From positions 125,656 through 189,655 of the forward strand of contig DAIDHL010000002.1 in NCBI GenBank assembly GCA_027459745.1: a stretch of DNA of 64,000 nt. The letters run 5' to 3'. Source of the DNA: Candidatus Levyibacteriota bacterium (GTDB taxonomy: Bacteria; Patescibacteriota; Microgenomatia; Levybacterales; UBA12049). Every line of letters begins with the position of its first letter. The stretch's first letter is position 1. Both the position numbers and the translations under genes were made by a program. Positions 12,707-61,660 of this stretch are shown one piece after another. The notes beneath the pieces were generated by a model. The model made no database searches. It saw nothing but the letters and a program-made list of their open reading frames with translations, and was not told the origin of the DNA.

Positions 12707-13477
12707 TTATAGTCCTTTGACATTGAAGAATCGACCGATAGAATAAGTCACAATCATTGCCAGTGCCCCTCCGGCTACTACTCTAAATGTAGCTTTGAGC
12801 ACGTTTGCCCCCCCGATTTTTGCACTAATAGTTCCGGTTATTGCCAGAGCGACAAGTACAGACACAAAAGTAACTGGAGTTTTCAACGTAGGTGGAAGAA
12901 TTATGATCGTAATCAGTGGAATAATAGCTCCTACCAAAAAAGAAGCCGCAGAAGCAATAGCTGCATGCCATGGATTAGTAAGGTTATTGGGATCAATGCC
13001 TAATTCAGCATCAAAATGAGCTTTGACTGGATCATGAGCTGTTAATTCTTTGGCTACTAACTCAGAGGTTTTTTTACTCAAACCTTTACCTTCATATATC
13101 CTAGCCAGCTCCTGCATTTCTTCTTCCGGATGATTGGCTAATTCTTCACGTTCTCGCTCCAATAAAGCTCTTTCAGTATCTCTCTGACTACTGACTGACA
13201 CATATTCACCAGCGGCCATAGAAATAGCACCAGCAATAATGCCTGCGATACCCGATGCAATTATTACAGAAACAGAATCAGTAGCCGCAGCAACTCCGAT
13301 GACCAGACCGGCAATAGATACAATACCATCATTAGCACCTAATACTGCAGCTCGTAACCAATTCAATTTAGCTGCATGATTAGATTTATCCTGTTGTGTT
13401 TTTAAATTATTTTTTTCTTTGGTCATATTTTTTGATAATTGATTGTATAATAATGTATTATTGTAATATTTTACCAA
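12707..13477 (-). CDS. VIT1/CCC1-family (DUF125) membrane protein, putative Fe/Mn transporter
   Basis: Motif LGANDGIVSIAGLVIGVAAA, followed by a hydrophilic acidic linker and C-terminal TM helices. Confidence 0.65.
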   Translation of the reverse strand: MVKYYNNTLLYNQLSKNMTKEKNNLKTQQDKSNHAAKLNWLRAAVLGANDGIVSIAGLVIGVAAATDSVSVIIASGIAGIIAGAISMAAGEYVSVSSQRDTERALLEREREELANHPEEEMQELARIYEGKGLSKKTSELVAKELTAHDPVKAHFDAELGIDPNNLTNPWHAAIASAASFLVGAIIPLITIIILPPTLKTPVTFVSVLVALAITGTISAKIGGANVLKATFRVVAGGALAMIVTYSIGRFFNVKGL

Positions 13478-21755: not shown

Positions 21756-23273
21756 CTAAAATTTATTAGCTACATTGTAATTAAATTTTAATAAAGAAAG
21801 AGAGCCTTCAACAGTATGAATTTTATAGATTGAACTTGGATTACCAAATTGTTTTTGGATGTCTATAAGAGAACAGCCATTTAACTCAGGAGTTAACTTT
21901 TTATCAAAATCGATAAGTATAAAACTTTTTTTAATTTGATTGTCAGGCAAATACCATTGCTCAGAACTTACCCATAAATACGGATAAATTTTATGTTGAT
22001 AACAAGATACTTGTCTAAATTTTATCTTATTTTTTGACAAAAAAGTATTTATTCCGGCATTCCAATAACTAGTATATCCATAATTTAAATTAGTACTGTT
22101 AACCTCTGAGATAACTTGAGTATTGTATCTATATTTATTAATCTCACTAAGTGTATAGAATTTTGTATTAATTGTTACTACGTTAACTATTACAACTATT
22201 ATTAGTAATACTATTAAGACTGATCTAAGTCTATAAAATTTTAAGTTATTCAATACAAATAATAATCCTATTGGGCTGAGAAAAACTATCATTAATAGAT
22301 AACGACTTGTAAGAATATCTTGTCCAAGATAAGCTATTAAATAAGAAAGAGTGTTAAGCATTACAGATAAAAAGATGAAGATGGGAATTATTGTAGTTTC
22401 TTTAAAAAATTTTTTGGTAAACAAAAATATACCCAAAACAGATATTATAAATAAAACCAGTTGTATTAATGAGAGAAATGTGAGGTCATAACTGTTATCT
22501 ACTAGGTATAAGAAACCCTCTATTAATAAGAACATATTTTTGCCTAAATCTTGTAAAGAAATCATATTTTGACCTAAATTTGATATAAGAAATTGGCCAT
22601 TTAAATTAAAAATATATTTAATCACGAAGCTTAGGCATGTTATTAGAAAAACAAAGATTAATGGTAGTAAGTATTGCTTTGAGTGTCTATATTGTATGAA
22701 TATAGTCAATAATAAAGGTATGACAAATAAAAATAAAAAGTATGGATCAGAGATAATTTCTAACAATAAAATAAAATAGATTAACAAACTTAATGGGTTA
22801 TTTTTTTTAATTTTAAGAGGATTATCAAAATAAATTAGCAAGATAAAACATATTCCAAATTCTATATTTCTAATAAAACTATCAGCAATAAAGTGATAAA
22901 AGGCCCACGAAAAAGTTATAAAGAATAATAATGGAAGATGATAAACAAAACCTCTTTTTTTGATATATTTTTTCAGTATAAAATAATAAAAGATTGTAAA
23001 TAAGGTTAATGTGATGGATAAATTTAGAAAAGAAGTTATAAAAAGAGTATTAAATGAATATCCAAAAGTTTTTAATACTAAAAAAGCTATGGGGTAATGT
23101 AAAATGAATGTATCAGGAGCAAGATAGATTGAAGATTTAAGAAAATCACTAAAAAGTAAGTATCCCCACACGCTATCACTTGTATATTGATTTCCAGTTG
23201 ATGCGTAAAATGAATTAATTAGGATTATTAGTAATGTCAGAAAGAAATAGCGGTAATGCTTTATTATTTTCAT
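21756..23273 (-). CDS. polytopic membrane protein, GT-C-like glycosyltransferase candidate
   Basis: More than 12 TM helices and very AT-rich. Paired divergently with a GT2 polyprenyl-phosphate sugar synthase-like gene. The upstream extension to 23351 in the ORF track reads through a TATA-rich promoter-like stretch, so the start was placed at MKIIKHY. Confidence 0.45.
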   Translation of the reverse strand: MKIIKHYRYFFLTLLIILINSFYASTGNQYTSDSVWGYLLFSDFLKSSIYLAPDTFILHYPIAFLVLKTFGYSFNTLFITSFLNLSITLTLFTIFYYFILKKYIKKRGFVYHLPLLFFITFSWAFYHFIADSFIRNIEFGICFILLIYFDNPLKIKKNNPLSLLIYFILLLEIISDPYFLFLFVIPLLLTIFIQYRHSKQYLLPLIFVFLITCLSFVIKYIFNLNGQFLISNLGQNMISLQDLGKNMFLLIEGFLYLVDNSYDLTFLSLIQLVLFIISVLGIFLFTKKFFKETTIIPIFIFLSVMLNTLSYLIAYLGQDILTSRYLLMIVFLSPIGLLFVLNNLKFYRLRSVLIVLLIIVVIVNVVTINTKFYTLSEINKYRYNTQVISEVNSTNLNYGYTSYWNAGINTFLSKNKIKFRQVSCYQHKIYPYLWVSSEQWYLPDNQIKKSFILIDFDKKLTPELNGCSLIDIQKQFGNPSSIYKIHTVEGSLSLLKFNYNVANKF

Positions 23274-23339
23274 GGACGTAAATGTTTTAGCAGTTGTAAT
23301 ATTTATATATAGTATATAATATATAAATACATTTGTTCT

Positions 23340-24065
23340 ATGAGTAAACATAAAAGAATAATTGTTGTTTTACCAGCATATAACGCTGAAAAGACTTTAA
23401 AGAGAACAGTAGAAGAGATACCTCAAAATGCTTATGACGAAATTATATTGGTAGATGATGCTTCTTCGGATTACACAATAAATGTAGCAAAAAGAATGAA
23501 ACTTAACGTCATTAAGCATGAAAAGAATAAAGGTTACGGTGGTAATCAGAAAACATGTTATGATAATGCTTTAAGATTAGGAGCAGATATTGTTGTAATG
23601 TTACATCCCGATTATCAATATGACCCTAAAATATTACCTAGCTTAACAGCGCCTTTGATATATGATTATGCAGATATAGTCCTAGCATCAAGAATGCTGG
23701 GTGATCCACATAAAGGAGGTGCATTACAAGGGGGTATGCCTGTATATAAATATATATCAAATCGTTTTTTGACTACATTCCAAAATATAATTTTCAGAAT
23801 GCATCTATCAGAATATCATACAGGGTATAGGGCATACTCTCGTAAATTTCTTCAAACGATTAATTATAAAAGTTTTTCTGATGATTTTATTTTCGACAAT
23901 GAACTTTTGATTGCAGGCATTCGTAATAGAATGAGATTTATGGAAGTTCCTGTTAAAACACGTTATTTCAAAGAAGCATCTTCAATAAATCTTCTAAGTA
24001 GTATCAAGTATGGAATAGCTGTAATTAATAAAACATTAAACTACAAACCTAAACGGAAATTATAG
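23340..24065 (+). CDS. family 2 glycosyltransferase (dolichyl/polyprenyl-phosphate sugar synthase-like)
   Basis: N-terminal VVLPAYNAE and DDASSD (DxD-type) motifs of GT2. Confidence 0.8.
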   Translation: MSKHKRIIVVLPAYNAEKTLKRTVEEIPQNAYDEIILVDDASSDYTINVAKRMKLNVIKHEKNKGYGGNQKTCYDNALRLGADIVVMLHPDYQYDPKILPSLTAPLIYDYADIVLASRMLGDPHKGGALQGGMPVYKYISNRFLTTFQNIIFRMHLSEYHTGYRAYSRKFLQTINYKSFSDDFIFDNELLIAGIRNRMRFMEVPVKTRYFKEASSINLLSSIKYGIAVINKTLNYKPKRKL

Positions 24066-24108
24066 TTTTATATGATTAACATTTTATTTTTAAAGTAACC
24101 ACTAATTA

Positions 24109-25272
24109 ATGAAAAAAATACAGTATTTGGAAGGATTAAGAGGGGTTGCTGCTTTAATAGTTATTGTACATCATATGGCTTGTGCATTTTTCCCTTCAAT
24201 AATATTTGGTAATTGGGCTCAAGAGCATTCAGCTTTAGAACAATATATATATACTACTCCTGTAAATATATTATTTGCTGGAAACTTTGCGGTTTGTGTT
24301 TTTTTTGTTTTAAGTGGTTTTGTCTTAAGTTATTCTTTCTTAAAGAAATCTTATGTTTTTAGTTTTAAGAAGTTGATTTTCCTTTTTTTCAGAAGATACT
24401 TGCGTCTTATGGTTCCTATACTTACTTCTGTATATATCGCATATCTTTTATTGCAGAATAACTTAATACTAAACAACAATGAGGTTATAAAATCTACATA
24501 TTCATATCTATGGTTAAATCAATACTATAGATTTCATCCTGATTTTTCGAGCATGTTGTATCAAGGTACAATAGGTATATTTATGAGCCCTAATGAAACT
24601 AGTTATAACAATGTGCTTTGGGCAATGTATTACGAGTATATTGGCTCATGTTTTGTATATATATTTCTTATGTTATTTAAAAATAATAAATATCGATATA
24701 TAGCTTATTTATTATTTTTTATTGTTTTTCTTAAAACGTACTATTTAGCTTTTCTTTTAGGAATATTATTATATGACCTTTACAAGCATTCCGATATTTT
24801 AATTAGGTTCTTTTCATTTAAATTCAATAACTTAATTATTTTAATTACAATTATTGTATTTGGAGGTTATCCGATCGCAGGGTGGTATGCAATTGATTAT
24901 CCATTAATCAAATTTTCTAATTTTTCTCTTTCTGAAATGTCAGTTTTATATCACATTTTAGGTGCCGTGTTTCTTATCGGTTATATTCTCTATACAAGAA
25001 AGGTTTCATCTTGGCTATCAACCAAATATCTCTCATTTATAGGTAGAATTTCATTTTCTTTATATCTATTACATCCGCTAGTGATATTCTCTTTTTCTTT
25101 ATTTATTTATTCTTTTATAATCAAGTACTTTAATTATAACATAACAGCATTAATTACTATACTTTTATCTATAATATTAATTATACCAATTGCTTATTTG
25201 TTCTATAAATATATTGATCAGAATAATGCTAAGGTATCTTACGCATTATTTAATATTCTATCTAAAACTTAA
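24109..25272 (+). CDS. acyltransferase family 3 membrane protein (O-acyltransferase)
   Basis: 10-11 TM helices. N-terminal LEGLRGVAALIVIVHH motif with the conserved His of acyl_transf_3. Confidence 0.7.
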   Translation: MKKIQYLEGLRGVAALIVIVHHMACAFFPSIIFGNWAQEHSALEQYIYTTPVNILFAGNFAVCVFFVLSGFVLSYSFLKKSYVFSFKKLIFLFFRRYLRLMVPILTSVYIAYLLLQNNLILNNNEVIKSTYSYLWLNQYYRFHPDFSSMLYQGTIGIFMSPNETSYNNVLWAMYYEYIGSCFVYIFLMLFKNNKYRYIAYLLFFIVFLKTYYLAFLLGILLYDLYKHSDILIRFFSFKFNNLIILITIIVFGGYPIAGWYAIDYPLIKFSNFSLSEMSVLYHILGAVFLIGYILYTRKVSSWLSTKYLSFIGRISFSLYLLHPLVIFSFSLFIYSFIIKYFNYNITALITILLSIILIIPIAYLFYKYIDQNNAKVSYALFNILSKT

Positions 25273-29553: not shown

Positions 29554-29641
29554 GGAGAGTGGGCCGGACGGTAAGGCACAGGTTTGCTAAACCTGCAGGG
29601 TCTTAAACAATCCTGAGTGGGTTCGACCCCCACACTCTCCG
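29554..29641 (+). tRNA. tRNA-Ser (anticodon GCU), class II with a long variable arm
   Basis: Acceptor GGAGAGT/ACTCTCC with discriminator G. Anticodon loop UUGCUAA. Variable arm CAGGGUCUUAAACAAUCCUGAG. T-arm GUGGG-UUCGACC-CCCAC. No encoded CCA. Confidence 0.85.
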
Positions 29642-29685
29642 CAGATATTTAATTACTTATGCAGGTTCTGTTACACTAAATATAC

Positions 29686-30381
29686 ATGGATCTGCTGAGC
29701 TTGTTGTTTCCTAAATATTGTTTGGGTTGCAAAAAAATGGGTGATTACATCTGTGCTAACTGCTTTGCTTCGATAAAATTCCAAGATGAAGACAAGTGTT
29801 TGGTTTGCAATAAGCCGTCAATCGACAGTAAAACTCATCCTGGTTGTGTCAGCAACTATAGCATAGACGGCTCAAGTTCAGCTTTAGTTTATAAAAGTAT
29901 AGTCAAAAAATTAGTCTACTCATTCAAATATGAACCTAATTTGACGAATCTAAGGCAAAATATGATTGATTTGTTGTATGAGGGTTTAATTCAGAAAGAA
30001 AGTTTACAAACAGTCTTGCAGCAGGACTGTGTTTTGGTGCCTATACCCTTGCATGCAGTTAAAATGCGTCAACGAGGATATAATCAAGCTAAATTGCTAG
30101 CTGAAGGATTGGTTAAATATTGGCACATACCTATAGTGGATTGTTTACGGAGACTTAAAACCACTCATTCTCAGTATCAATTAAGTAGAGTGGAGCGTTT
30201 AAACAATCTTAAAGGAGCATTCTCTATTAATTCTAAGCATATTGATAAAATTAAAGATAAAACTATATTGTTGGTTGATGATTTAATCACTTCCGGAGCA
30301 ACGATGAATGAAGCGACTAAAGTTTTAAAGCATAATGGAGCTCAGGGGGTGTGGGGAATTGCGTTTGCCCATGGGCAGTAG
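29686..30381 (+). CDS. comFC: ComF-family protein (competence protein ComFC, phosphoribosyltransferase domain)
   Basis: N-terminal CxxC...CxxC zinc finger and C-terminal PRTase motif LLVDDLITSGATM. Confidence 0.75.
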   Translation: MDLLSLLFPKYCLGCKKMGDYICANCFASIKFQDEDKCLVCNKPSIDSKTHPGCVSNYSIDGSSSALVYKSIVKKLVYSFKYEPNLTNLRQNMIDLLYEGLIQKESLQTVLQQDCVLVPIPLHAVKMRQRGYNQAKLLAEGLVKYWHIPIVDCLRRLKTTHSQYQLSRVERLNNLKGAFSINSKHIDKIKDKTILLVDDLITSGATMNEATKVLKHNGAQGVWGIAFAHGQ

Positions 30382-30430
30382 TTAATAGAGAGTAATAAGA
30401 ATTATGAATTGAGGAGGGAGTTATCATGCT

Positions 30431-30520
30431 TGGAAGCCAAGTCTGACTTGGCGACTCCAGGATTAAATTGATTCTGGAGTCGCATCCCCGCTAAGCGGGG
30501 TCGCTTGCCAAAATGACGAC
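30431..30520. repeat. GC-rich triple-hairpin element, copy C (ends AAATGACGAC; the reverse complement starts GTCGTCATTTTGGCAAGCGAC)
   Basis: Three consecutive perfect hairpins (CCAAGTC/GACTTGG, GACTCCAG/CTGGAGTC, ATCCCCGC/GCGGGGT) between comFC and the TPR gene. The terminus resembles copies A and B. Confidence 0.35.
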
Positions 30521-30587
30521 TTCTTTAACGTATTATTAGAACAATTTGCTGGTATAATAGCGTAAAATTAAGAGCTTTTGTTAAATA

Positions 30588-31250
30588 ATGGATAAGCAAC
30601 AACAATTTCAATTAGCACAACAGAAACGAGATAACGGTCAATTCGACCTAGCCATAGCAGATTATCAACAGATTCGTTTGGCGGCTATGTCGAGTGGCAA
30701 TGATTGGTTGGCGGGCGAATGCTTGCATATGATTGGTGTAGCTTATTATCAACAAAATGAATTTACTATGGCTGATGATTATTACCAACAGGCTTTGGAA
30801 ATTTTTCAGCGGACTGATAACAAAGATTTTGTAGCTATTGTTAAAAGAGATTTAGGTTTGTCTGTATATAAACAACAAGATTTTGCTAAAGCCAAAGAGT
30901 ATTTATTACAAAGTGTATCAAGTTTAAAAGATAGCAAATTGGCAGATCAGTATGCAATTTCTCAAGCCAAGTTAGGCTTTGTACGGGCTATACAGGGAGA
31001 AGTTAAAGAGGGGGTTGAGTTAATGCAAGAAGCGATTGGATTACTTGAGCAAAGTGAGGAAAAGTTTTTCCTAGTCATAGCATTCTTTGATTTAGCCAGA
31101 ATTTATCAGGCTGCCAACATGATTGAGGATGCTAAGCAAGCTGTGGAACGTTCATTAGCAGTCTTAAACTCATTTAGTAAAGAGGATCAATTTGTACAAA
31201 AAAGAAAAGACATAGCTGAATTGCAGCAGAGTTTAGCTGAGAAAAAATAG
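30588..31250 (+). CDS. tetratricopeptide-repeat protein
   Basis: Repeated 34-residue TPR-like units (W-LG-Y-A-F-P pattern). Confidence 0.65.
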   Translation: MDKQQQFQLAQQKRDNGQFDLAIADYQQIRLAAMSSGNDWLAGECLHMIGVAYYQQNEFTMADDYYQQALEIFQRTDNKDFVAIVKRDLGLSVYKQQDFAKAKEYLLQSVSSLKDSKLADQYAISQAKLGFVRAIQGEVKEGVELMQEAIGLLEQSEEKFFLVIAFFDLARIYQAANMIEDAKQAVERSLAVLNSFSKEDQFVQKRKDIAELQQSLAEKK

Positions 31251-31265
31251 ACAGGAAGGAGGTAC

Positions 31266-31529
31266 ATGGACGAGGAAAAACAAGCACAAGCCAATATTAA
31301 TCTTAATCTGGAAAACACGCCTGTTTTATATGCGGACAATATTTTTTGGAATATCAGTCCGGATGGAGTGATGTTGAATTTTGGACAATCTATCATGGGG
31401 TCTGGTGGAGTAAAAGTTGTCAGCCGGGTGGGGATGAGTAGGGAATTTGTGAAGAGATTTATCGCCGATCTGGGTAAGAATTTAGCACTCACGGAAGGTC
31501 ATGGCCAGACAGGCAAAGCCAAGAGTTAA
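31266..31529 (+). CDS. small hypothetical protein (DUF3467-like)
   Basis: 87 aa. YADNIFWNISPDGVMLNFG resembles the DUF3467 core. Tentative. Confidence 0.4.
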   Translation: MDEEKQAQANINLNLENTPVLYADNIFWNISPDGVMLNFGQSIMGSGGVKVVSRVGMSREFVKRFIADLGKNLALTEGHGQTGKAKS

Positions 31530-31531
31530 AA

Positions 31532-32569
31532 TTATCTATATAAAGCACGTAATTGGTTACCTGGCATGTACGTTACAACTTCATCAACTAACCTTCCATC
31601 AGTTATAGTTTGTTGCATAGCTGGACGAATAGGCAAGCCAAGTTGACGAGCAGTATCAGTAACAATTGTTCTTCCAAGGTTGCCAGCTACCGACATTACC
31701 CTGCGATTAGTTGCATTAGAGTAGCCAAAAACTACATCTACATCATCTCTGGCTGCTAATTCACGCAATAGTTGATGTGATAAAGCTGTATAAATACCTC
31801 GTCCTTCCATTTCTGGACGAACCTTGGCACCCATGACTTCAAAAGTACTTAATTTTACATTCTTTCCATGTCTGCGAAGTGTATCTGCATCGTTACTAGC
31901 GTAAACTGTTCCTATAACCCTTGGTTTACCTCTGTATAAAGTTGTCGCTGCCAGGGCGACAGAATCTTCGTCAGCTATAACCTCTCTAATTTCACTGTCT
32001 TCATCTCCAAACGAGCCGGAGATGAGTTTTACAAACTGCTTTTTTATTTTAGGGTCACTTTCCTCAGTTAATCTTTGGATGGTTATACCTTCTGGGACAG
32101 GAGTTATAATTCCTGATTCTCTACGTATTTGACCTGCTTGGAAAGCACCTGTGGCCTCTGCTAGTTCTTGTGTAATAACCTCAGGCGGTGTTTGTCGACT
32201 ATCTGCATTGCGCGAAAATATAGCTTGATAACAATCAGCCAGATCTGCATTGCCAGACTCAGCAAGAGAGATAAGCACTTCCAAATCGGGTAATAGAGGT
32301 CTTAGAGCATCAGGGAGATTTCTTAGTAAGTCTGCTGTCATGACTACTCTAGCCATGTTTCTGGTAAGTTCAGATGTAAAAGGTGTGTTGAGGATATCCG
32401 AGATAGCAGTTAATTTATGGGGAGATTCTACAACATCACGTACAATGCCTATGCGCCAACTAAAACCGTCATCTGGATATTCATAGCCAGCCACGTCTGG
32501 TCGTAGGTGCCAATTTTCATCAGGGTCACGTTCATAAGGTTGTTCAGTTGGATTCAGAAACTCACTCAT
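31532..32569 (-). CDS. hypothetical protein with C-terminal GNAT-like acetyltransferase fold; in higher-GC region
   Basis: C-terminal VRPEMEGRGIYTALSHQL resembles GNAT motif A. Codon usage is visibly more GC-rich than the flanking genes. Confidence 0.5.
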   Translation of the reverse strand: MSEFLNPTEQPYERDPDENWHLRPDVAGYEYPDDGFSWRIGIVRDVVESPHKLTAISDILNTPFTSELTRNMARVVMTADLLRNLPDALRPLLPDLEVLISLAESGNADLADCYQAIFSRNADSRQTPPEVITQELAEATGAFQAGQIRRESGIITPVPEGITIQRLTEESDPKIKKQFVKLISGSFGDEDSEIREVIADEDSVALAATTLYRGKPRVIGTVYASNDADTLRRHGKNVKLSTFEVMGAKVRPEMEGRGIYTALSHQLLRELAARDDVDVVFGYSNATNRRVMSVAGNLGRTIVTDTARQLGLPIRPAMQQTITDGRLVDEVVTYMPGNQLRALYR

Positions 32570-32694
32570 AAAAGAATTATAACAAAAAAGAATAAATTAA
32601 TCAACCTATAGTATGGATTTGTTGTTTTTCGTCCTCTTTTAGTGACGCACCTGGTTGACAGGGTTTTTGCTGAGTTATATGATCAGATAGTTGT

Positions 32695-34098
32695 ATGTCA
32701 GCACCCAAATTAACGCTTCAACAGGCTCTAGATGACGCCCCTCTGAGCCTCTTTCATTACAAAGCTATGATAACGGCCGGCATCGGTTTTTTCACTGACG
32801 CCTATGATTTGTTTGTCATTGGTACAGCGATAACTTTGATCAAAGAACAATGGCATCTGTCTCCAGTACAAGTCGGTTTTTTGGGCAGTAGTACCTTGAT
32901 CGCGACATTTGCAGGTGCATTTATCTTCGGACACTTGGCTGATAAATTAGGCCGCAAGGCTGTGTATGGTTTGGAAGCGCTAATTATGGCCATTTCTGCT
33001 TTTGCTTCGGCGCTAGCACCCAATTTTTTAAGCCTCGTCATTTTGCGTATTATTTTAGGTTTTGGTATTGGCGGTGATTATCCGGTCAGCGGAGTCATCA
33101 TGAGTGAGTATTCCAACAAAGCTAACAGAGGCAGAATGGTAAGTCTCGTTTTTTCCATGCAAGCTTTAGGATTGATTATTGGGCCGGTCGTGGCACTTAC
33201 CTTATTGGCTTCAGGTATCAATCATGAATTGGCTTGGCGAATAATGCTAGGTATTGGAGCGTTGCCAGCCTTAGCCATTATTTATTTTAGGCGTCAACTA
33301 CCTGAGTCGCCGCGGTTTTTGGCGAGTGTAAAGGGTAAAGCTAATTTAGCTGCCGAACACATGCATAAATTAAGTGGAGGTGTGATTCAAGCGAGCACTG
33401 TTACGCAGCGAAAAGTAAAACATACCTTTCGCGCATTTATTACCAAGCGTCAGAATCTTCGTTACTTGTTAGGTACGGCTGGTGCCTGGTTTTTGCTTGA
33501 TTATGCTTACTATGGCAATACGATTTCTACACCTTTGGTATTGAAAACAGTTGCGCCGAGTTCGGCACTTATTCAATCCACCGCCTGGAGCTTGATTATC
33601 TTTGCTATTGCGGCTGCACCCGGTTATGTAGCGTCTTTCAGTTTTATCGATAAAATCGGACATCGTAAATTGCAATGGATAGGCTTTGTAGTGATGGGAA
33701 TTTGTTTTAGTCTGATCGGACTTATTCCTGGTCTCATTCATAGTGTGTTACCTTTTCTGTTGCTGTACGGTTTGAGTTATTTCTTCACCGAATTTGGTCC
33801 CAATGTGACAACTTTTGTTATTCCGACGGAAATTTTTGCTGTCAATGGCCGGACAACTGGACATGGAATATCAGCGGGAATTGGGAAAATAGGGGCGTTT
33901 ATCGGCGTATTTGCCTTCCCTCTATTGACAGCGAATTTAGGTTTGGCCGGCACATTGTTATTATCGGCTGGATTTTCTTTTGCCGGTGCTTTATTAACTT
34001 TTATTCTGCCTGAACCAGCCAGAAGGAGCTTGGAAGAAACATATGAAGAAAATGCCTTAGATCGAGCAAGCAAACCAGCATATCTGACAACAAAATAG
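32695..34098 (+). CDS. MFS transporter (phosphate/metabolite:H+ symporter-like)
   Basis: 12 TM helices. The D-x-x-GRK motif between TM2 and TM3 (LADKLGRKAVYG) is typical of the MFS sugar/phosphate porter group. Higher GC. Confidence 0.75.
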   Translation: MSAPKLTLQQALDDAPLSLFHYKAMITAGIGFFTDAYDLFVIGTAITLIKEQWHLSPVQVGFLGSSTLIATFAGAFIFGHLADKLGRKAVYGLEALIMAISAFASALAPNFLSLVILRIILGFGIGGDYPVSGVIMSEYSNKANRGRMVSLVFSMQALGLIIGPVVALTLLASGINHELAWRIMLGIGALPALAIIYFRRQLPESPRFLASVKGKANLAAEHMHKLSGGVIQASTVTQRKVKHTFRAFITKRQNLRYLLGTAGAWFLLDYAYYGNTISTPLVLKTVAPSSALIQSTAWSLIIFAIAAAPGYVASFSFIDKIGHRKLQWIGFVVMGICFSLIGLIPGLIHSVLPFLLLYGLSYFFTEFGPNVTTFVIPTEIFAVNGRTTGHGISAGIGKIGAFIGVFAFPLLTANLGLAGTLLLSAGFSFAGALLTFILPEPARRSLEETYEENALDRASKPAYLTTK

Positions 34099-34218
34099 CA
34101 AGGGCGGAGTGTGAACATTGAGAATAAGATTTGAAACCGGCCTGAAGAGTATATTTTGCGATAGCTTACGATACTTCAGAGGAGCTGTGCATTTGTCCAC
34201 ATTATTTTAAAAATAAGG

Positions 34219-34971
34219 CTAGATATAGGCCACAACGGCTATGTGATCAGAGGACGTAGCATTACGCGGTAACGCTTCAACTGTTGCCTGTTCGAGATCG
34301 GGAGTTACCAGAACCCGATCAAATGTCTTTTTCCCAGGATCAGATAATCGCTCCATTATCCCCGGATATTTTTTATATGTAGCCACACCTTGTGGAGGGC
34401 CTGCATATCGAAGTCCAGTCTCTTTCTCAACAATGCGAATCTCTTCCGCTGTAAGATAAGGCAGATTCGTATCATAAACCGCTATTCCTGAAGAGTGATG
34501 AGCAAAAGCAGCATCTCGGGTAATTTGACCTCCTTCAACCAGTTGTCTCAACCTTCCAGATTTAAGTGCTAAAAGATTTGATGCATGCCCATTTGCGACG
34601 ACTAACCCCGCTTCACCTTCGGCTGCAGGAAATAATCGTACTTCTAACAGTCGATTTCCTCTAGGGTTAATGGTAAGAAATTCAGTTACTTTCGTTGGAG
34701 TCAGGGGATGAGATGATACGCGAGCAGTTCTCCATCTCTGAGGATTATAATAGGTTGCCAACCCAACACGATGATGCCCCAATAACATGGTATGCGCAGC
34801 CAAAAGTAACCCTCCAAGAGCATCGGGGATATCTGTACCTGCTTCTTGAAGACATGCTATGTCGATGTTGTGAGCCTTGACTATATGACCTAATTCAGGT
34901 GTTGCTTTATTAAACAACACATTATGAGTTAATACCTTGATGTCAAGTCTTCTGGGTGCGAGTTCTTTCAT
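34219..34971 (-). CDS. endonuclease/exonuclease/phosphatase (EEP) family protein
   Basis: DIACLQEA motif near the N-terminus and a C-terminal SDH motif. Start placed at MKELAP; the track start at 35028 adds an AT-rich extension. Confidence 0.65.
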   Translation of the reverse strand: MKELAPRRLDIKVLTHNVLFNKATPELGHIVKAHNIDIACLQEAGTDIPDALGGLLLAAHTMLLGHHRVGLATYYNPQRWRTARVSSHPLTPTKVTEFLTINPRGNRLLEVRLFPAAEGEAGLVVANGHASNLLALKSGRLRQLVEGGQITRDAAFAHHSSGIAVYDTNLPYLTAEEIRIVEKETGLRYAGPPQGVATYKKYPGIMERLSDPGKKTFDRVLVTPDLEQATVEALPRNATSSDHIAVVAYI

Positions 34972-35181
34972 AGGTAATATATGAGCGGCAGGTTTAAAGA
35001 GAAAATTTTGTATGAAGAAGTATACCAAAATACAGTATAAATGTAAACTTATAGTAATTGAAGGTGACGTTATTTTTTCAGGAAATGTTTATTACGGAAG
35101 GCGAGGCCAGATTGGGTCTTTAGATAATCTTCAAATCTTGCTGCTAACTGCTTACCAGTAAAAGCAGCATAAAACACTAAA

Positions 35182-35424
35182 TTAACAGGTCTGAGATTTT
35201 TTTGTAGACAAGACTAGTCCACCTTCATGATCTTTTATCCTAGCTTTTAAATCACTAGAACTCCCATGGTAATATGTTTTATCCCTTAATTGAAGAATGT
35301 AGGTGTAGTACACGGCTTTATAATAACAAAAAGTCCCTCTTCGCTCCAATAAATTGGAGTTTCGAAGGGACACTCTTCTTGTTTTGTTTTCAAGCAGATT
35401 ATTTTTAGAAGTGTGGCTTGCCAC
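35182..35424 (-). CDS. GIY-YIG nuclease-superfamily small protein
   Basis: YYTYILQ...KTYYHGSSSDLKARIKDHEGG matches GIY-YIG (URI) motifs. GTG start. Sits at the junction between the tmRNA 3' end and the higher-GC block. Confidence 0.55.
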   Translation of the reverse strand: MASHTSKNNLLENKTRRVSLRNSNLLERRGTFCYYKAVYYTYILQLRDKTYYHGSSSDLKARIKDHEGGLVLSTKKSQTC

Positions 35425-35431
35425 TTCGTAG

Positions 35432-35453
35432 CCAGGTGCAATACTGTACCTGG
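35432..35453 (-). terminator. hairpin (CCAGGU...ACCUGG) immediately 3' of the tmRNA; termination/processing structure
   Basis: Perfect 6-bp inverted repeat 8 nt downstream of the tmRNA discriminator base. No U-run follows. Confidence 0.35.
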
Positions 35454-35460
35454 CGAAGAG

Positions 35461-35882
35461 TGGAGATGTCGAGCTATGAACTCGAGTCCGAAAAATGTTA
35501 ATAAAAACGTCTACAAGCGTAGTTTATCTTTGAAATGTCCTTTTATTCTTTTCCGATAAACAGGAAAATAAAAGTAAGAACTCTTTTTAACCAATAATAG
35601 GGGAATTCAATCCCTATTATCTGTTTCCCAACTGTGTTATGCCCATATCATCCCGTTGGGGAAGACAATATGAACAGGCTTCTCAAACCTTATGCAGCGA
35701 GTGCATATGCAGGAGCGAATCCTGCGTTTGAGCGACCACCGTCAGCCAACACCGAGGTGGTGAACTGGCGGATGCGTTGGCTAATGCCATCAGCATTTAT
35801 ATTTTGATTCTATTTTACGGCTGTGAATCATCGCCGGCTTGCAGTTGTTAAAGAGCACTTAACGTCGAATCAAATCATCCCC
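35461..35882 (-). ncRNA. ssrA: tmRNA (SsrA), standard one-piece, about 422 nt
   Basis: The 5' end GGGGAUGAUUUGAUUCGACG matches the tmRNA 5' consensus. The 3' end carries a T-arm UCGAG-UUCAUAG-CUCGA followed by CAUCUCC-A. The acceptor GGGGAUG/CAUCUCC contains a G3-U70 wobble (the alanine identity element). An internal ORF ends ...GCU CCU GCA UAU GCA CUC GCU GCA UAA (..APAYALAA-stop). It lies directly downstream of smpB on the same strand. Confidence 0.85.
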
Positions 35883-35963: not shown

Positions 35964-36398
35964 CTAACCTCTAAATTCTTGCTCCAGTTCTCGGTCTAAA
36001 TCTTGCCTCTTGATAGCCTCACGTTTTTGATATTCTTTTTTACCTTTTCCGAGGCCAAGTTGGACTTTGATGTAGCGTCTTGTAGTATAAAGCGAAAGTG
36101 GCACCAAAGTCAAGCTCTGCCCATCCATTTTGGACTTCAAAGCTAGTAGTTGAGCCTTATGCAGGAGGAGCTTACGTGTGCGTGTAGGCTCGTAGTCTTC
36201 TGGTCGTGCATACGAATAAGGCAAAATTTTAGCATTGACCAAATAAGCTTCACTGCCAATGATTCGTGCGTAACTACCCTTGAGATCGACATGACCAAGC
36301 CTGACAGCCTTGACTTCGGCGCCATTTAAATTGATTCCAGCCTCCAAAGATTCCAGAATTCTATAATCATAAAATGCCCTAGAATTAGTGATTTTCAT
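35964..36398 (-). CDS. smpB: SsrA-binding protein SmpB
   Basis: The whole 144-aa sequence fits SmpB (GAEVKA...KLLLHK...). Adjacent to ssrA. Confidence 0.9.
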   Translation of the reverse strand: MKITNSRAFYDYRILESLEAGINLNGAEVKAVRLGHVDLKGSYARIIGSEAYLVNAKILPYSYARPEDYEPTRTRKLLLHKAQLLALKSKMDGQSLTLVPLSLYTTRRYIKVQLGLGKGKKEYQKREAIKRQDLDRELEQEFRG

Positions 36399-55920: not shown

Positions 55921-58371
55921 ATGATAAAACTTGATGGTATCAGAGGAAAAGTATTTTTAGATCGTTATGCTCTTAAAGATAAAGAGGGTAATTTGATAGA
56001 ACATACTCCAGAAGAAACTTGGAGAAGAGTCGCCAGAGGAATTGCTCAAAGCGAAAAAGCCAAGGATCGAGAGTACTGGGAGGAAGAATTTTATAAAGCC
56101 ATGGCAGATTTCAAATTTGTGCCAGGTGGTCGTATTCTGTCTGGCGCAGGTACAGGTTTTCAGGTAACATATTTCAATTGTTTTGTTATTCCCTCACCTA
56201 AAGATTCTCGCCATGGTATTTTGGAATCACTTGGTCAACTAGTAGAAATTCAGGCACGCTCGGGAGGGGTAGGTTTAAATCTTTCTTCGTTACGTCCTAA
56301 GGGTGCTCGTGTAAAAAAGGTCAATGGTACTTCTTCTGGGCCCGTTAATTGGGCTACGCTTTTCTCAGTCGCTACTCATGATATTGTGCAGCAAGGTGGA
56401 TCACGTCGTGGTGCAACCATGTTGATGTTAAATGACTGGCATCCAGATATTGAAGAATTTATTACCGTCAAAGAAGATTTGACAAAAATCAGTGGTGCTA
56501 ATTTATCAGTCTGTATTTCAGATGCGTTTATGGAGGCTGTGAAAGCAGATAAAAGTTGGGAGTTAGTTTATCCTGATACTAGTGATCCAGATTACGATGA
56601 AAAATGGAATGGTGAATTGGACCAATGGAAAGCCTTGGGTAAAGAAGTTAAAGTATTCAAGACTGTAAAAGCGCGTGAATTGTGGGATCTTATCTGCACA
56701 GCTGCTTGGAGATCAGCCGAGCCAGGTCTACATTTCCTAGAGAGATCCAATAAGCGTTCTAATACTTGGTATTTCGAAAGATTGGTCGCTACTAACCCTT
56801 GCGGAGAACAACCTCTCAGTGGTTGGGCTGTTTGTAATCTAGGAGCTATGAATTTGTCAGCATATGTTAAAGATGCAGATTTAGCTAATGAGAAAGCTGG
56901 TTGGTTTGATTACAAGTCTTTTGCTCAGGATGTAAAAGTCGCCATGCGTTTTATGGATAATGTCATTGACCAGACACACTACTTTTTCCCAGAAAATGAG
57001 AAGGTTGCTAAGGATATTCGCAGAACTGGTCTGGGTATCATGGGGTTAGGAGATACTTTAATCAAAATGCACATTCGTTATGGTTCTGAGGAATCAATCC
57101 CCGTAGTAGAAAAGATCTTTCAAACCTTGCGTGATAGTGCATACGAAGCTTCTAGTGATATAGCTGCAGAGAAGGGTAGTTTCCCCAAATTTGATAAAGA
57201 TAAATATTTACAAGGTTACTTTATAAAAGCTTTGCCCAAGAAGTTACGTGACAAGATTCGTGATCAAGGAATTCGCAATGGAGTATTGCTTACTGTAGCT
57301 CCCACTGGTACCACAAGTTTAGTGGCTGGCGTATCGTCGGGTATTGAGCCTGTCTATGAGTTTTCTTTTTTGCGCAAATGGAGAGGTGGAGAAGAAGTGA
57401 TGTATCATCCGCTTTATGACGCCTGGATCAAAAATCATCCAACAGCAGCTAAACCAGATTATTTTTGTAGTACCAATGATTTAACTCCTTTAGAACATGC
57501 CAAGGTGCAGGCTGTGGCCCAAGAATATATTGATTCTAGTATCTCAAAAACGGTTAATGCTCCTAAAAATCATACAGTCGATGATGTGAAGACACTCTAT
57601 ATGTTGGCCTATGATATGGGTTTGAAAGGTATTACTTATATGCGGGATGGTTCACGCCAAGGTGTGTTGGAAAGAATAGAAGAGAAAAAAGAAGAAAAGA
57701 AAGAAGAAGTTAAACCTGCTATTCCAGCTACTCCGCGGGTAGCTCGTCCGATGATGCTGATGGGTACCACTTACAAAACTGAAAGTCCAGTTGGTAATAC
57801 TTACATTACCATCAATCACGATGAGAAGAGTGATCCATTTGAAGTATTTATTAGTAATGGAAAATCTGGATCAGATGTTTCAGCTATGGCAGATGCTTTA
57901 GGTAGAATGATTTCCTTTATTCTGCGTATTCATAGTTCTGTGCCTCAACGTGAACGTGTACGCGAAATAGTGTCTGAATTGACAGGTATTGGCGGAGCAC
58001 GTACTGTTGGCTTTGGACCTAATCGTGTACGCTCATTACCTGATGCAGTAGCCAAGATTTTGGCTCGACATTTTGAGTTTAGAGTTAACGGAAAAGTAGA
58101 AGATAAAGAAGTCATTGCCGCGGTAAAAGCCGAGCCCATTCTGGCTGCTTCGGCTAGCTTAACTAATGGACATGCTGCAGTAATAACTCAGCCAGTAGAT
58201 ATGCCAGCTACACCAGTAGCTCAACAATTGACTTTGACGGCTGATGCTCCAGTACAAATGGAACATAGTACAACTAATTTATTTGATATGTGTCCTGAAT
58301 GTCAGACATATAGTTTTGCTTACGAAGAAGGTTGCAAAAAATGCTATAGCTGTGGCTATAGTGAGTGTTAA
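55921..58371 (+). CDS. nrdJ: adenosylcobalamin-dependent (class II) ribonucleotide reductase NrdJ
   Basis: FVPGGRILSGAGTG and TNPCGEQPL active-site motifs. C-terminal CxxC...CxxC zinc ribbon. 2 nt downstream of nrdR. Confidence 0.9.
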   Translation: MIKLDGIRGKVFLDRYALKDKEGNLIEHTPEETWRRVARGIAQSEKAKDREYWEEEFYKAMADFKFVPGGRILSGAGTGFQVTYFNCFVIPSPKDSRHGILESLGQLVEIQARSGGVGLNLSSLRPKGARVKKVNGTSSGPVNWATLFSVATHDIVQQGGSRRGATMLMLNDWHPDIEEFITVKEDLTKISGANLSVCISDAFMEAVKADKSWELVYPDTSDPDYDEKWNGELDQWKALGKEVKVFKTVKARELWDLICTAAWRSAEPGLHFLERSNKRSNTWYFERLVATNPCGEQPLSGWAVCNLGAMNLSAYVKDADLANEKAGWFDYKSFAQDVKVAMRFMDNVIDQTHYFFPENEKVAKDIRRTGLGIMGLGDTLIKMHIRYGSEESIPVVEKIFQTLRDSAYEASSDIAAEKGSFPKFDKDKYLQGYFIKALPKKLRDKIRDQGIRNGVLLTVAPTGTTSLVAGVSSGIEPVYEFSFLRKWRGGEEVMYHPLYDAWIKNHPTAAKPDYFCSTNDLTPLEHAKVQAVAQEYIDSSISKTVNAPKNHTVDDVKTLYMLAYDMGLKGITYMRDGSRQGVLERIEEKKEEKKEEVKPAIPATPRVARPMMLMGTTYKTESPVGNTYITINHDEKSDPFEVFISNGKSGSDVSAMADALGRMISFILRIHSSVPQRERVREIVSELTGIGGARTVGFGPNRVRSLPDAVAKILARHFEFRVNGKVEDKEVIAAVKAEPILAASASLTNGHAAVITQPVDMPATPVAQQLTLTADAPVQMEHSTTNLFDMCPECQTYSFAYEEGCKKCYSCGYSEC

Positions 58372-58424
58372 GTAAATGAGAATTTATTAATAATTAGAAA
58401 TTGTAAATTAAAAATTAAATGGTT

Positions 58425-58593
58425 ATCTAGGTAATAGAGGTGTAATTCCTCATCAGTGCCGCTACTGTGACCCCACTTCGCGTAAAGTTACGCGGAGCAG
58501 GGAAGACAGAAAACTAGGTAATTTTATCTTTATCCCGAGCAGGAATTTTTGTTTCTCATCAGATAAAAGTTCTCGCTTAGGAGAACTTTTTTT
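58425..58593 (+). promoter_or_regulatory. cobalamin (AdoCbl) riboswitch, compact variant, with expression-platform hairpin
   Basis: In order: GGUGUAAUUCC (GGUGnAAnUCC), GCCGCUACUGUGA (CCGCnACUGUnA), CCCCACUU (B12-box-like CCACU), and GGGAAGAC (GGGAAG). A hairpin AAGUUCUC-GCUUAG-GAGAACUU plus U7 overlaps the AGGAGA SD just before the ATG at 58594. Confidence 0.6.
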
Positions 58594-59145
58594 ATGAGAA
58601 TATTACTTCGAGCAAAGCAGTTAATAAATAACGTAATAAAACTAAACCCACTGTTATATGTTGGATTATTTGTAGCTGCTCGTTTATTGCCACATCCGGC
58701 TAATCTGTCGCCAGTTGATGCCATGGTACTATTTGCCGGGGTCTATTTAAATAGACGTTATGCGTTAATAGCTCCTTTGGTAGCCTTATTTATCTCCGAT
58801 ATGTTTTTAGGGTTTTACTGGCAAATGCCCTTCGTTTACGGGAGCTTTATCATTACTGGTTTATTGGGTTTATGGCTTAGACATCATAAGTCTATTACTA
58901 ATATCTTAGGTTTTTGTTTATTGTCGTCAGTACAATTTTTTGTTATTTCTAATTTTGGTGTTTGGTTAACTACTAGTTTTTATATTCATACTTTGAGTGG
59001 TCTAATTAATTGCTATGTGATGGCATTACCATTTTTCCGCAATAGTCTGATAGGTGATCTGGTTTATACAAGCTTATTCTTTGGAAGTTATGAGTTTATA
59101 GTTTTTAAGCTGATTAAGTACAAGCAAGTCTTAAATAAGGAATGA
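58594..59145 (+). CDS. small 5-6 TM transporter component, ECF S-component/BtuM-like (candidate cobalamin uptake protein)
   Basis: 183 aa, all-membrane. Sits between a cobalamin riboswitch and a PduO-type adenosyltransferase. Confidence 0.5.
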   Translation: MRILLRAKQLINNVIKLNPLLYVGLFVAARLLPHPANLSPVDAMVLFAGVYLNRRYALIAPLVALFISDMFLGFYWQMPFVYGSFIITGLLGLWLRHHKSITNILGFCLLSSVQFFVISNFGVWLTTSFYIHTLSGLINCYVMALPFFRNSLIGDLVYTSLFFGSYEFIVFKLIKYKQVLNKE

Positions 59146-59212
59146 CGTAATAGGTATAAGGGTTAAGAGAATTTCCTTATACCCTTACTACTAACTACTT
59201 AGACCTATTTTT

Positions 59213-59776
59213 ATGAAAACCAAGATTTATACCAAAACAGGAGATAAAGGTAAAACATCATTAGTCGGTGGTAAAAGAGTAAACAAATTCGATTTACGAG
59301 TGGAAACCTATGGCACGGTGGATGAGCTTAATTGTGCTACTGGAATCGTTATCGCTCAAATTAAAAATTCAAAATTAAAAATTAAAAATGAAAAATCATT
59401 AATTATAAGTTATTTGGAAGAGATTCAGAATGATTTATTTACTATTGGATCAACATTAGCAAATCCCAATAATCCAGCATTACCACAATTAGAAAAGCGC
59501 ATTAAAGAATTGGAAAAGATAATTGATCAAATGACTGAACATTTACCCGAATTAAAAAATTTTATTTTACCTGGGGGTAGTCTGACTGGTGCACAATTAC
59601 ATTTGGCTAGAACTATTTGTCGAAGAGCTGAACGCAGGGTTGTTGAATTAAAACAGACAGAAGAAATTGATGATTTAATTGTAAGTTATTTCAATCGTTT
59701 ATCAGATTTTCTATTTACCGCTGCCAGATATGCCAATCATCTGAAAAATAAAAAAGAAACAATTTGGAGAACTTAA
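59213..59776 (+). CDS. PduO-type ATP:cob(I)alamin adenosyltransferase
   Basis: N-terminal IYTKTGDKGKTSL signature of the PduO family. Confidence 0.85.
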   Translation: MKTKIYTKTGDKGKTSLVGGKRVNKFDLRVETYGTVDELNCATGIVIAQIKNSKLKIKNEKSLIISYLEEIQNDLFTIGSTLANPNNPALPQLEKRIKELEKIIDQMTEHLPELKNFILPGGSLTGAQLHLARTICRRAERRVVELKQTEEIDDLIVSYFNRLSDFLFTAARYANHLKNKKETIWRT

Positions 59777-59779
59777 GAT

Positions 59780-60955
59780 ATGCTGCAAGCAGTTGAGATG
59801 GGGCGACAGTTGCCTCAAAATATTGAGATTCAAAAAAATAATCATTTATCGTTCAATCTATCCCATGAGAGAGATCGTGCCTTGGAAGCAAGTCGTACAG
59901 GCAATAGAGAACAAATGAAATTAGCTCGTGATGGCTTTATACAAAACACGCAATATTGGGCCAAAGAATATATAGGTGGCATACAAACTACACATTATCT
60001 TTGGCACATTGTTGATGATGGAGGTAAGACTCGTTTATATCATCCCTCTTTCGGTTATGCGGATGATGCTTCGCAGCGCGCTTTAGAACAGAATGTACCT
60101 GAGTATGAAAAAAAGAGAAGGCAAGTTGAACATAACGTGACTAAGCAGTTTTCTCAAGTATTAAAAGATGCCCACAAAGGCGATGTTTTCGTCTGGACTA
60201 GTCCTCCTCCTGAAGTAAAGGGAATTGAAAAAGGAGTATATGGTGGATATACTATGACTCACTTATATGAGGTCGATGAGGTTACACTTAATGAAGGCGG
60301 AAAAACAAAATCTGTCAAGATTCTCAAAGGTAGAGATGTAAAAAATTACTTAAAAAATGAAGAACATAAAGAGTTACTCGAGACTTTAGGTGAACAAAAA
60401 ATTTTTGAAGGTATACCATCTTCTCTGGATCTTTTAGCAACTTTAGTAAAAGTTAAATATGGAACTTCCAGTCGTGATGTAGAAACAAAAATAAAACAAA
60501 TAGAAAAATATTTAGGACCGTCAGAAAATGAAACAAAAGTTAAAGAATTTGAAAAAATTTTGCAGGATAATGAATGGATGTTAGAACGTATATTCCAAAT
60601 GTTGATTTTGGAAGATGTTAATATTTCACAAGCTTTTATAACTAATTATTTTAAACAATACGCACAAGCAATTGAGCTGGCACAAAGCAAAGGTTCAGAT
60701 AAAACATTGGACGCACTGGGTTTTGTAGCACATGTCGCGGCAGGTGGCAGTTGTGGCGCAGGTGTGGGATTTGGAGATGCAGCTAAAAATGCTTTTGGTT
60801 ATCAGCCCACTGCGCTGGCCGCAAGCTTAAGTGGTGAAAGAACCTTAAAGTGTAAAGAATGTCCCTTATGTAAGAGCAAAGATATAGAGGCAGTTATTAA
60901 AGATGGTAAAATTCAATGTCCTTCTTGTATGGGTTCTGCCGAATATGCTTGTTAG
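59780..60955 (+). CDS. hypothetical 391-aa protein with C-terminal 4-Cys zinc ribbon; last gene of the riboswitch-controlled operon
   Basis: No family assignable. C-terminus CKECPLC...CPSC. Starts 3 nt after the PduO stop. Confidence 0.5.
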   Translation: MLQAVEMGRQLPQNIEIQKNNHLSFNLSHERDRALEASRTGNREQMKLARDGFIQNTQYWAKEYIGGIQTTHYLWHIVDDGGKTRLYHPSFGYADDASQRALEQNVPEYEKKRRQVEHNVTKQFSQVLKDAHKGDVFVWTSPPPEVKGIEKGVYGGYTMTHLYEVDEVTLNEGGKTKSVKILKGRDVKNYLKNEEHKELLETLGEQKIFEGIPSSLDLLATLVKVKYGTSSRDVETKIKQIEKYLGPSENETKVKEFEKILQDNEWMLERIFQMLILEDVNISQAFITNYFKQYAQAIELAQSKGSDKTLDALGFVAHVAAGGSCGAGVGFGDAAKNAFGYQPTALAASLSGERTLKCKECPLCKSKDIEAVIKDGKIQCPSCMGSAEYAC

Positions 60956-61653: not shown

Positions 61654-61660
61654 TTAAATT

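Follow-up and report, generated by a model that had tools for sequence, protein, structure and literature searches.

Hotspots of gene transfer and flexible genomic islets that carry no integrase are known between core genes, often near tRNA genes or the gene for transfer-messenger RNA (tmRNA; ssrA). In Dehalococcoides, genomic islands form tandem arrays downstream of ssrA (McMurdie et al. 2011, PMC3146451), and T4 SegB is described in PMC2330249 as a proven site-specific GIY-YIG homing endonuclease in a tRNA gene cluster. Here we analyse the DNA next to ssrA in a Candidatus Levyibacteriota bacterium, on a stretch of 64,000 nucleotides (contig DAIDHL010000002.1, positions 125,656 to 189,655; hereafter the window). 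An initial annotation of the window had proposed that a higher-GC block of four genes at 31532-35430 (GNAT-like, major facilitator superfamily (MFS) transporter, EEP-family and GIY-YIG), lying between a tRNA-Ser gene and the 3' end of ssrA, was a probable genomic islet at a tmRNA site. Comparison with related genomes suggests that the locus is probably an old slot for accessory genes, filled piece by piece and free of integrases, beside a conserved unit made up of ssrA, its 3' trailer and a GIY-YIG gene.

Results

Synteny of the ssrA locus among relatives

Gene presence near smpB-ssrA was scored by tblastn (E<=1e-5) in 58 related smpB loci, which were fetched around SmpB homologs, 18 of them from species-representative genomes and 40 from metagenomes; the sequences are mostly metagenome-assembled, and their divergence is at the level of species to family and not of strains. 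The EEP, MFS and GNAT-like genes were absent from this site in all of them (0/58). The proposal of an islet was thus borne out as far as it described a lineage-specific segment, but not in its suggestion of site-specific integration at ssrA, of which no hallmark was seen. The frame that recurs in the relatives is smpB-ssrA-(GIY-YIG)-comF(reverse)-tRNA-Ser. It was found that ssrA directly adjoins comF in, for example, loci L006, L009, L011, L035, L041, L044, L046 and L055, that the GIY-YIG gene is the only gene separating the two in L010, L053 and L042, and that in most relatives comF adjoins either ssrA or the slot, by which we mean the DNA from the end of the ssrA-trailer-GIY-YIG unit to comF-tRNA-Ser. 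This layout with an empty slot is the commonest and probably the ancestral one. In the window the gene order from ssrA to tRNA-Ser is GIY-YIG, EEP, MFS, GNAT-like, DUF3467, TPR and comF, and the tRNA-Ser(GCU) gene was confirmed at the 1.9 kb from the block that had first been given for it. The features of the locus are:

35964-36398, minus strand: smpB (Pfam SmpB, E=2.9e-46), the conserved anchor upstream of ssrA
35458-35882, minus strand: ssrA, the tmRNA gene, as previously annotated (Rfam RF00023, 112.3 bits, full length), with its 3' end at 35458
35314-35457, minus strand: conserved 3' trailer of ssrA, alignable with L036, L047, L010 and L053
35070-35313, minus strand: gene for a minimal GIY-YIG nuclease, frameshifted by +1 (Pfam GIY-YIG, tblastn, alignment)
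34219-34971, minus strand: orphan EEP-fold phosphoesterase gene (cargo 1), promoter-like site at 35047-35019
32695-34098, plus strand: PHS-type (Pho84-like) MFS transporter gene (cargo 2; Sugar_tr, E=2e-51), promoter-like site at 32655-32683
31532-32569, minus strand: gene for a two-domain GNAT-like protein (cargo 3), promoter-like site at 32604-32576
31266-31529, plus strand: DUF3467 gene (Pfam)
30588-31250, plus strand: TPR protein gene (Pfam)
29686-30381, plus strand: comF, part of the conserved far anchor of the slot
29554-29642: tRNA-Ser(GCU) gene (ARAGORN and Rfam), forming the far anchor together with comF (29554-30381, plus strand)

What fills the slot differs between relatives, with sizes from 0 to about 5 kb and at least 10 different contents. 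VTT and GDPD genes are found in L003 and L004, GDPD alone in L012, an SDR gene with one for an uncharacterised protein in L007, three such uncharacterised proteins in L008, an MpaB-like oxygenase in L013, Fic proteins in L002, L036, L037, L038 and L061, and further uncharacterised proteins in other loci. As a separate observation, the Fic/DOC-domain proteins are 443-452 aa long (L002 10468-11823; L036 1763-3094; L037 8468-9823; L038 1150-2505; L061 1499-2857), in three of these five loci (L002, L037 and L038) the next gene after the Fic gene is a 289-aa open reading frame (ORF), and the L002 copy carries an HNH_repeat, which is a homing-endonuclease-associated repeat.

The SmpB searches place the organism in Candidatus Levyibacteriota (CPR/Patescibacteria), and its closest species-level relative is L001 (DAIDHK010000001), with an SmpB identity of 87%. 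Nucleotide homology to L001 (~75%) spans 41200 down to 35460, that is to the tmRNA 3' end, restarts at 31541 with DUF3467 and TPR, and restarts again at tRNA-Ser; homology to all relatives ends immediately after the tmRNA end (...CATCTCCAC). The gap in L001 is filled by a different segment of 2.5 kb, which encodes an ELWxxDGT-repeat protein. Orthologs of DUF3467 and TPR (84% and 74% identical) are at the syntenic place in L001, and neither gene had a match in the smpB loci other than L001. Since only L001 shares them, both genes belong to an older layer of the same slot. The boundaries of 31532-35430 that had been drawn for the block nearly coincide with the breaks in L001 homology at 35460 and 31541, but the non-ancestral DNA takes in DUF3467 and TPR as well and covers about 30588-35028.

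A trace of one of the cargo genes was also found in L001. At 13322-13429 of this locus the last 36 residues of the GNAT-like protein were matched by tblastn in the same orientation (47% identity, E=1.3e-6); the stop codon is aligned, the match borders on the DUF3467 stop, in-frame stops lie upstream, and 7 of the 10 family-invariant C-terminal positions are kept. It follows from this remnant that a GNAT-like gene stood beside DUF3467 and TPR in the common ancestor of both genomes, and L001 later lost the stretch from the tmRNA end to inside the GNAT-like gene, plus comF. No remnants of MFS, EEP or GIY-YIG were found in the L001 slot (E > 0.09). The 36-codon pseudogene at the same junction shows that the insertion is old and layered, as the initial annotation had suspected in calling it an old, decayed insertion, the GNAT-like, DUF3467 and TPR genes by all these alignments predating the split from L001. 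The absence of comF between the TPR gene and tRNA-Ser in L001 (14389-14532, corresponding to 29643-30587 in the window) is an observation of its own, comF being conserved at this site in nearly all relatives other than L001.

Loss at the site is evident in L001, where the GNAT-like gene is a remnant and GIY-YIG and comF are gone, and it could be asked whether the genes were all present in early Levyibacteriota and were deleted repeatedly during genome reduction, with no acquisition at all. The host-like codon and tetranucleotide usage of the block, and the MFS and GNAT homologs of other Patescibacteria, are consistent with such a history. However, many independent and scar-free losses would be needed, with more than 45 loci at 60-73% SmpB identity being without all five genes (TPR, DUF3467, GNAT-like, MFS and EEP). 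In addition, the MFS and GNAT homologs of related candidate phyla radiation (CPR) genomes occupy other sites and have different neighbours, and unrelated genes fill the slots of other lineages. We consider ancestral presence followed by loss alone to be improbable.

The tmRNA 3' end is a recurrent breakpoint, at which the L001 replacement, a rearrangement in L032 and L033, and flips of ssrA orientation in several lineages have taken place. L032 and L033 are the next closest loci (78% SmpB identity). Their chromosomal rearrangement has its breakpoint exactly at the tmRNA 3' end, with ssrA joined (L032 1128-7899, L033 8933-13464) to orthologs of window genes at 55921-64000, among them a TraG/VirD4-like gene (61766-64000+), one at 61006-61653 with no Pfam match, and the genes for a cobalamin adenosyltransferase and a class II ribonucleotide reductase. 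A conjugative element at ssrA in L032 was considered and rejected, as the TraG/VirD4-like gene of that locus is orthologous to the resident window gene at 61766-64000+ (83% identity), and the arrangement is therefore a chromosomal rearrangement and not a mobile element. In many Levyibacteriota (L004, L006, L007, L009, L011, L035, L038, L041, L042 and L044) the orientation of the tmRNA gene to smpB is reversed, with that of the flanking genes unchanged.

The GIY-YIG gene and the ssrA trailer

The ORF listed at 35182-35424 was found to be an artefact of a frameshift and of read-through into non-coding DNA, its first ~37 codons lying in the conserved ssrA trailer. When the L010 homolog was used in tblastn it matched the window in two frames (35313-35200 and 35201-35079), and a run of A7 at 35197-35203, where the intact homologs need A6 ('ST-KNLRP'), gives the +1 frameshift, which may be genuine or may be a sequencing error in the homopolymer. 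Once corrected, the protein has 81 aa and aligns from end to end with 8 homologs. For the window, PF01541 covers the N-terminal half only (E=7.9e-5); the L010 ortholog is matched over the full length (E=4e-15). As in the minimal standalone class, the GIY-YIG catalytic domain (~80 aa) is the sole domain, and no extra domain was found beside it.

The spacing from ssrA to GIY-YIG is 136-148 nt in seven loci (the window, L010, L034, L036, L047, L053 and, in inverted form, L007), and GIY-YIG is also the next gene after ssrA in L038 and L042. Type-A copies are 58-66% identical to that of the window and SmpB in the same genomes is 65-70% identical, a similar divergence. The trailer of 144 nt starts with a hairpin directly after the tmRNA end, the stem of which varies in sequence with complementarity kept in each locus, contains the invariant blocks CTACGAAGTGGC...GCCACACTTC...GAAGAGTGTCCC, and ends before the GIY-YIG start in a conserved terminator-like hairpin with a T-run; it may serve as an element for tmRNA precursor processing or termination. 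Judged by this conservation, ssrA, trailer and the putative nuclease gene are an inherited unit, and GIY-YIG is not cargo. Since GIY-YIG and the trailer are conserved and syntenic, the cargo starts about 390 nt past the tmRNA 3' end, not 37 nt from it as had been stated for the block, and the idea that the GIY-YIG protein was a homing-type remnant at the junction gives way to that of a conserved neighbour of ssrA with an alignable trailer. Nor is this an insertion within or at the 3' end of an RNA gene, because 35070-35457 (trailer and GIY-YIG) separates ssrA from the cargo.

Eleven of the 12 GIY-YIG genes in the fetched loci lie at most 150 nt downstream of a tRNA or tmRNA gene on the same strand, where 0.28 would be expected, and at least four RNA genes serve as partners: tmRNA, tRNA-Ser(GGA), tRNA-Ser(UGA) and tRNA-Arg(GCG). 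Minimal GIY-YIG genes of ~80-100 aa are located in the window (35070-35313), L004 (15261-15491), L012 (13781-14008), L036 (1437-1661 and 6059-6262), L049 (3569-3778) and L054 (11606-11809), among others. No description of an association with tRNA or tmRNA flanks was found in the survey of the superfamily (PMC1564403). As to the tmRNA gene itself, CCA is not encoded in the window's copy, which has a ~90-nt insertion after the tag region. ARAGORN did not detect it, although the Rfam match is full length; ARAGORN likewise missed the tmRNA in loci of relatives (e.g. L007, L010, L012 and L034, where Rfam gives 103-117 bits), and it did detect that of L004.

A different explanation would have the GIY-YIG nuclease itself make the hotspot, by cutting near ssrA and tRNA genes, with repair leading to gene turnover, ssrA inversions and breakpoints. 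The placement of 11 of the 12 genes just behind such RNA genes points in this direction, as does the occurrence of two divergent GIY-YIG subtypes at the same post-ssrA position; furthermore, the variable cargo always lies just past the ssrA-GIY-YIG unit, the unit is inverted in several lineages, and SegB offers a precedent, being a GIY-YIG homing endonuclease that both lies in a tRNA gene cluster and acts on it (PMC2330249). Yet the proteins of ~80 aa are without a DNA-binding domain and their nuclease activity is putative, slots are equally variable where GIY-YIG is absent (L001, L003, L005, L008 and L013), the copy in the window is frameshifted, and a position behind an RNA gene may merely reflect use of its promoter. 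This explanation is therefore given little credence. The broader idea, that GIY-YIG genes trailing ssrA and tRNA genes may be selfish or recombinogenic and so make integrase-independent hotspots of gain, loss and inversion, of which the islet in the window would be one product, is in our opinion similarly doubtful.

Signs of mobility

It might also be that a site-specific element once entered ssrA by means of an integrase and then lost both the integrase and its attR repeat, with the cargo left behind. Such a decayed island would be in keeping with the role of ssrA as a classic integration target, as in the tandem arrays of Dehalococcoides (PMC3146451), with the breaks of L001 homology and of L032/L033 synteny exactly at the tmRNA 3' end, and with the variation of slot contents among relatives. 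Against it, no integrase or recombinase was found among all ORFs of the window slot (Pfam and NCBIfam) or in the slots of about 25 relatives, and the intergenic gaps within the block, of 41-125 nt, are too small for remnants, which leaves no room for that of an integrase. For a direct repeat of the tmRNA 3' end, the longest exact match within 8 kb downstream was 9 nt (shuffled-null mean 9.3, maximum 13), the same exact k-mer comparison gave nothing above chance in 13 relatives (14 loci including the window), and blastn-short returned no match in 29.6-35.4 kb. On both points, the missing integrase and the missing repeat, the initial annotation had read the locus correctly. Moreover, the inherited trailer and GIY-YIG separate ssrA from the cargo, so that cargo entry was not within ssrA, and the distributions of the cargo genes are discordant. 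We thus judge a decayed integrase-mediated island to be unlikely. A defence island or prophage remnant was likewise rejected, as PADLOC and PHROGs gave no matches save a generic TPR, and nothing was found for the GNAT family in a scan of viral contigs; the slots of the relatives are likewise free of phage and defence genes.

Composition

The block is indeed the GC-richest 3.9 kb of the window, with an excess of ~5 points (0.416-0.424, where 3.9-kb windows average 0.370 with an sd of 0.027) that places it in the top 3% of 121 sliding windows; of the higher-GC block of four genes as first claimed, what does not stand is the fourth member, since GIY-YIG is not part of the insert. The excess had been attributed to GC-richer codon choice of the GCC, CGG and CTG type. 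GC-rich codon choice is ruled out by GC at third codon positions (GC3), per-codon fractions and synonymous-usage ranks. GC3 is 0.254 for GNAT, 0.382 for MFS and 0.307 for EEP against a mean of 0.292 (sd 0.044) for the genes of the window, the synonymous-codon distances of the three rank 38, 33 and 17 among 59 genes, and for GCC, CGG and CTG there is a mild enrichment in MFS and EEP but none in the GNAT-like gene. The excess is located at codon positions 1 and 2, and by the fraction of Gly+Ala+Arg+Pro EEP ranks 1st, MFS 3rd and GNAT 5th among the 59 genes. A foreign oligonucleotide signature, the other measure that had been put forward, was ruled out as well, the GC-normalised tetranucleotide usage of the block being ordinary (correlation 0.758; window mean 0.764). 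What raises the GC of the block is amino-acid composition; neither codon choice nor a foreign oligonucleotide signature accounts for it. This pattern is compatible with genes acquired long ago that have reached equilibrium at their silent sites, or simply with unusual proteins, and taken alone it proves nothing.

The same data raise the question of whether there was any insertion at all, or only a GC bump due to the protein families, or a misassembled metagenome. That the excess is due to amino-acid composition, and that the MFS homologs in L026 and L027 are likewise 2-3 GC points above their own flanks, would suit an artefact of this kind. The comparative evidence for insertion is, however, independent of composition, both junctions are continuous with conserved synteny, and the GNAT remnant of L001 lies at the same junction; in tetranucleotide usage the block is like its host, and the GNAT homolog in L019 has a lower GC than its own locus. 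We regard an artefact as very improbable.

Elsewhere in the window a low-GC block of three genes was noted at 21756-25272 (GC 0.24-0.31 against 0.37), which encodes a 531-aa protein with no Pfam match, a GT2 glycosyltransferase and an Acyl_transf_3 acyltransferase, is flanked by MgsA and MsrA, and holds the most deviant tetranucleotide windows of all 64 kb. It is a much stronger candidate than the ssrA block for an acquired or hypervariable islet of cell-envelope glycan genes.

The cargo genes

The family of the GNAT-like protein is small, with only 13 members in the 5.8 billion sequences searched. The protein has a C-terminal GNAT acyltransferase fold, with the acyl-CoA binding core of the GNAT acyl-CoA N-acyltransferase superfamily, and a well conserved N-terminal domain of ~165 aa, for which there was no full-length match among solved structures; the family profile found nothing significant among PDB sequences. 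The homolog in L019 (64% identical) is at an unrelated site on a low-GC CPR contig that shares with the window a GlnA that is 74% identical, and homologs at 41-43% identity are on contigs of 47-52% GC, adjoining TIR-NB-ARC-WD40 or MMPL/transposase genes.

For the MFS transporter the best NCBIfam model is TIGR00887 (phosphate:H+ symporter), matched over its full length at 323.5 bits, which is below the equivalog cutoff of 610.3. Homologs share 80-82% identity with it in other Patescibacteria and ~60% in Chloroflexota and Alicyclobacillus/Sulfobacillus, and are annotated at the source as 'PHS family inorganic phosphate transporter-like'. In L026 (8893-11401) and L027 (8897-11404) the homolog is divergently paired with an AbrB/MazE-PhoU fusion gene, in L030 (96-2901) it is near a CYTH-domain gene, and none of the three sites is near ssrA; the PhoU partner is missing in the window. 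Because TIGR00887 is the best match and PhoU and CYTH genes neighbour the homologs, the transporter most likely has a role in phosphate uptake, as predicted from these matches. The EEP gene is an orphan, with 30-36% identity to its nearest relatives. Its product has the fold and the Asn/Glu/His/Asp/Asn/Asp-His catalytic set of the EEP superfamily, with the predicted catalytic residues intact. Most likely the EEP protein would hydrolyse some phosphoester and the GNAT-like protein would acylate some amine.

For each of the cargo genes there is a separate, well-placed promoter-like site. With the nearest homologs of MFS (~73% identity) and GNAT (~67%), nucleotide homology is confined to the ORFs, and as it ends at the ORF boundaries no recent transfer is visible. 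A conserved functional module was considered and rejected, as the eight homolog-bearing contigs have no common neighbours and the sole recurring partnership, that of PhoU and MFS, is absent here. The three cargo genes are not one unit, given their discordant phyletic patterns, their separate promoter-like sites and the fact that they are adjacent nowhere else, and there is no evidence that EEP, MFS and the GNAT-like protein work together.

Discussion

We propose that in Levyibacteriota this slot, bounded by the ssrA-trailer-GIY-YIG unit on one side and comF-tRNA-Ser on the other, is permissive for accessory genes, and that the lineage of the window gathered five genes there in layers, namely those for the TPR protein, DUF3467, a GNAT-fold acyltransferase, a homolog of PHS-type transporters and an EEP phosphoesterase. 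The first three were in place before the L001 split, and MFS and EEP may have arrived before or after it. The cargo would consist of independent transcription units drawn from the accessory gene pool of the phylum, with synonymous sites and oligonucleotide usage that have presumably equilibrated with the host and proteins that are still rich in Gly, Ala, Arg and Pro. Genes may have been gained and lost by ordinary recombination, whether illegitimate or directed by the conserved flanks, and insertions may be tolerated because the site has an RNA gene unit that ends in a terminator on one side and a gene in convergent orientation on the other; integration at a specific site in ssrA would have had no part in it. 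Like other flexible islets, the slot has conserved anchors with differing content, no genes for self-mobility, and cargo of independent histories.

Several points weigh against this proposal. L001 alone is close enough for dating, which gives little resolution on the order in which the genes were acquired. That the breakpoints of L001 and of L032/L033 fall exactly at the tmRNA 3' end would also fit a site-specific process whose traces have vanished, and the recombination mechanism is deduced from the lack of other signals and was not observed. EEP has no close homolog anywhere, and since the relatives are mostly metagenome-assembled, misassembly is possible in some of them.

In this case a reduced CPR genome gains and loses accessory genes in one fixed place next to ssrA with no integrase involved, which is useful for interpreting variability among metagenome-assembled genomes, the phenomenon as such being well known. 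It also carries a caution, in that a modest GC bump arising from amino-acid composition is weak evidence of transfer; it was synteny that decided the case and shifted both boundaries of the claimed island. The linkage of GIY-YIG genes to the 3' flanks of tRNA and tmRNA genes, the two-domain GNAT family of 13 members and the orphan EEP enzyme are side products of note.

As with the ssrA islands of Dehalococcoides (PMC3146451), the tmRNA gene, present in a single copy, has lineage- or strain-specific genes directly downstream, its 3' end is where synteny breaks, and the cargo differs between relatives. Unlike those islands, the slot in the window has neither a recombinase nor a repeat above chance, and an inherited trailer and GIY-YIG gene precede the cargo. 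The transporter resembles PHS (Pho84-type) symporters in its full-length best match to TIGR00887 and in the PhoU-domain and CYTH genes near its closest homologs, but 323 bits is far below the 610 cutoff, which makes the substrate assignment putative, and the PhoU partner has been lost in the window. With SegB the window-type proteins have in common the GIY-YIG catalytic domain (PF01541) and a gene directly beside tRNA-type genes. SegB is a larger protein with DNA-binding regions; those of the window type, known from sequence only, have ~80 aa, are positionally conserved with ssrA and are frameshifted in the window. In size and in single-domain architecture they are like the 'Slx1-like' minimal standalone GIY-YIG proteins of prokaryotes (PMC1564403). 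The slot as a whole is most like the integrase-free islets, with which it shares a short interval with conserved bounds, accessory genes that vary by lineage, no mobility genes and turnover gene by gene; it differs from the typical ones in being known from metagenome-assembled genomes of a CPR phylum that diverge at the species-to-family and not the strain level, and in that its mechanism is inferred. The islet is thus an ordinary example of a known phenomenon, a variable spot in the genome, and not a mobile island.

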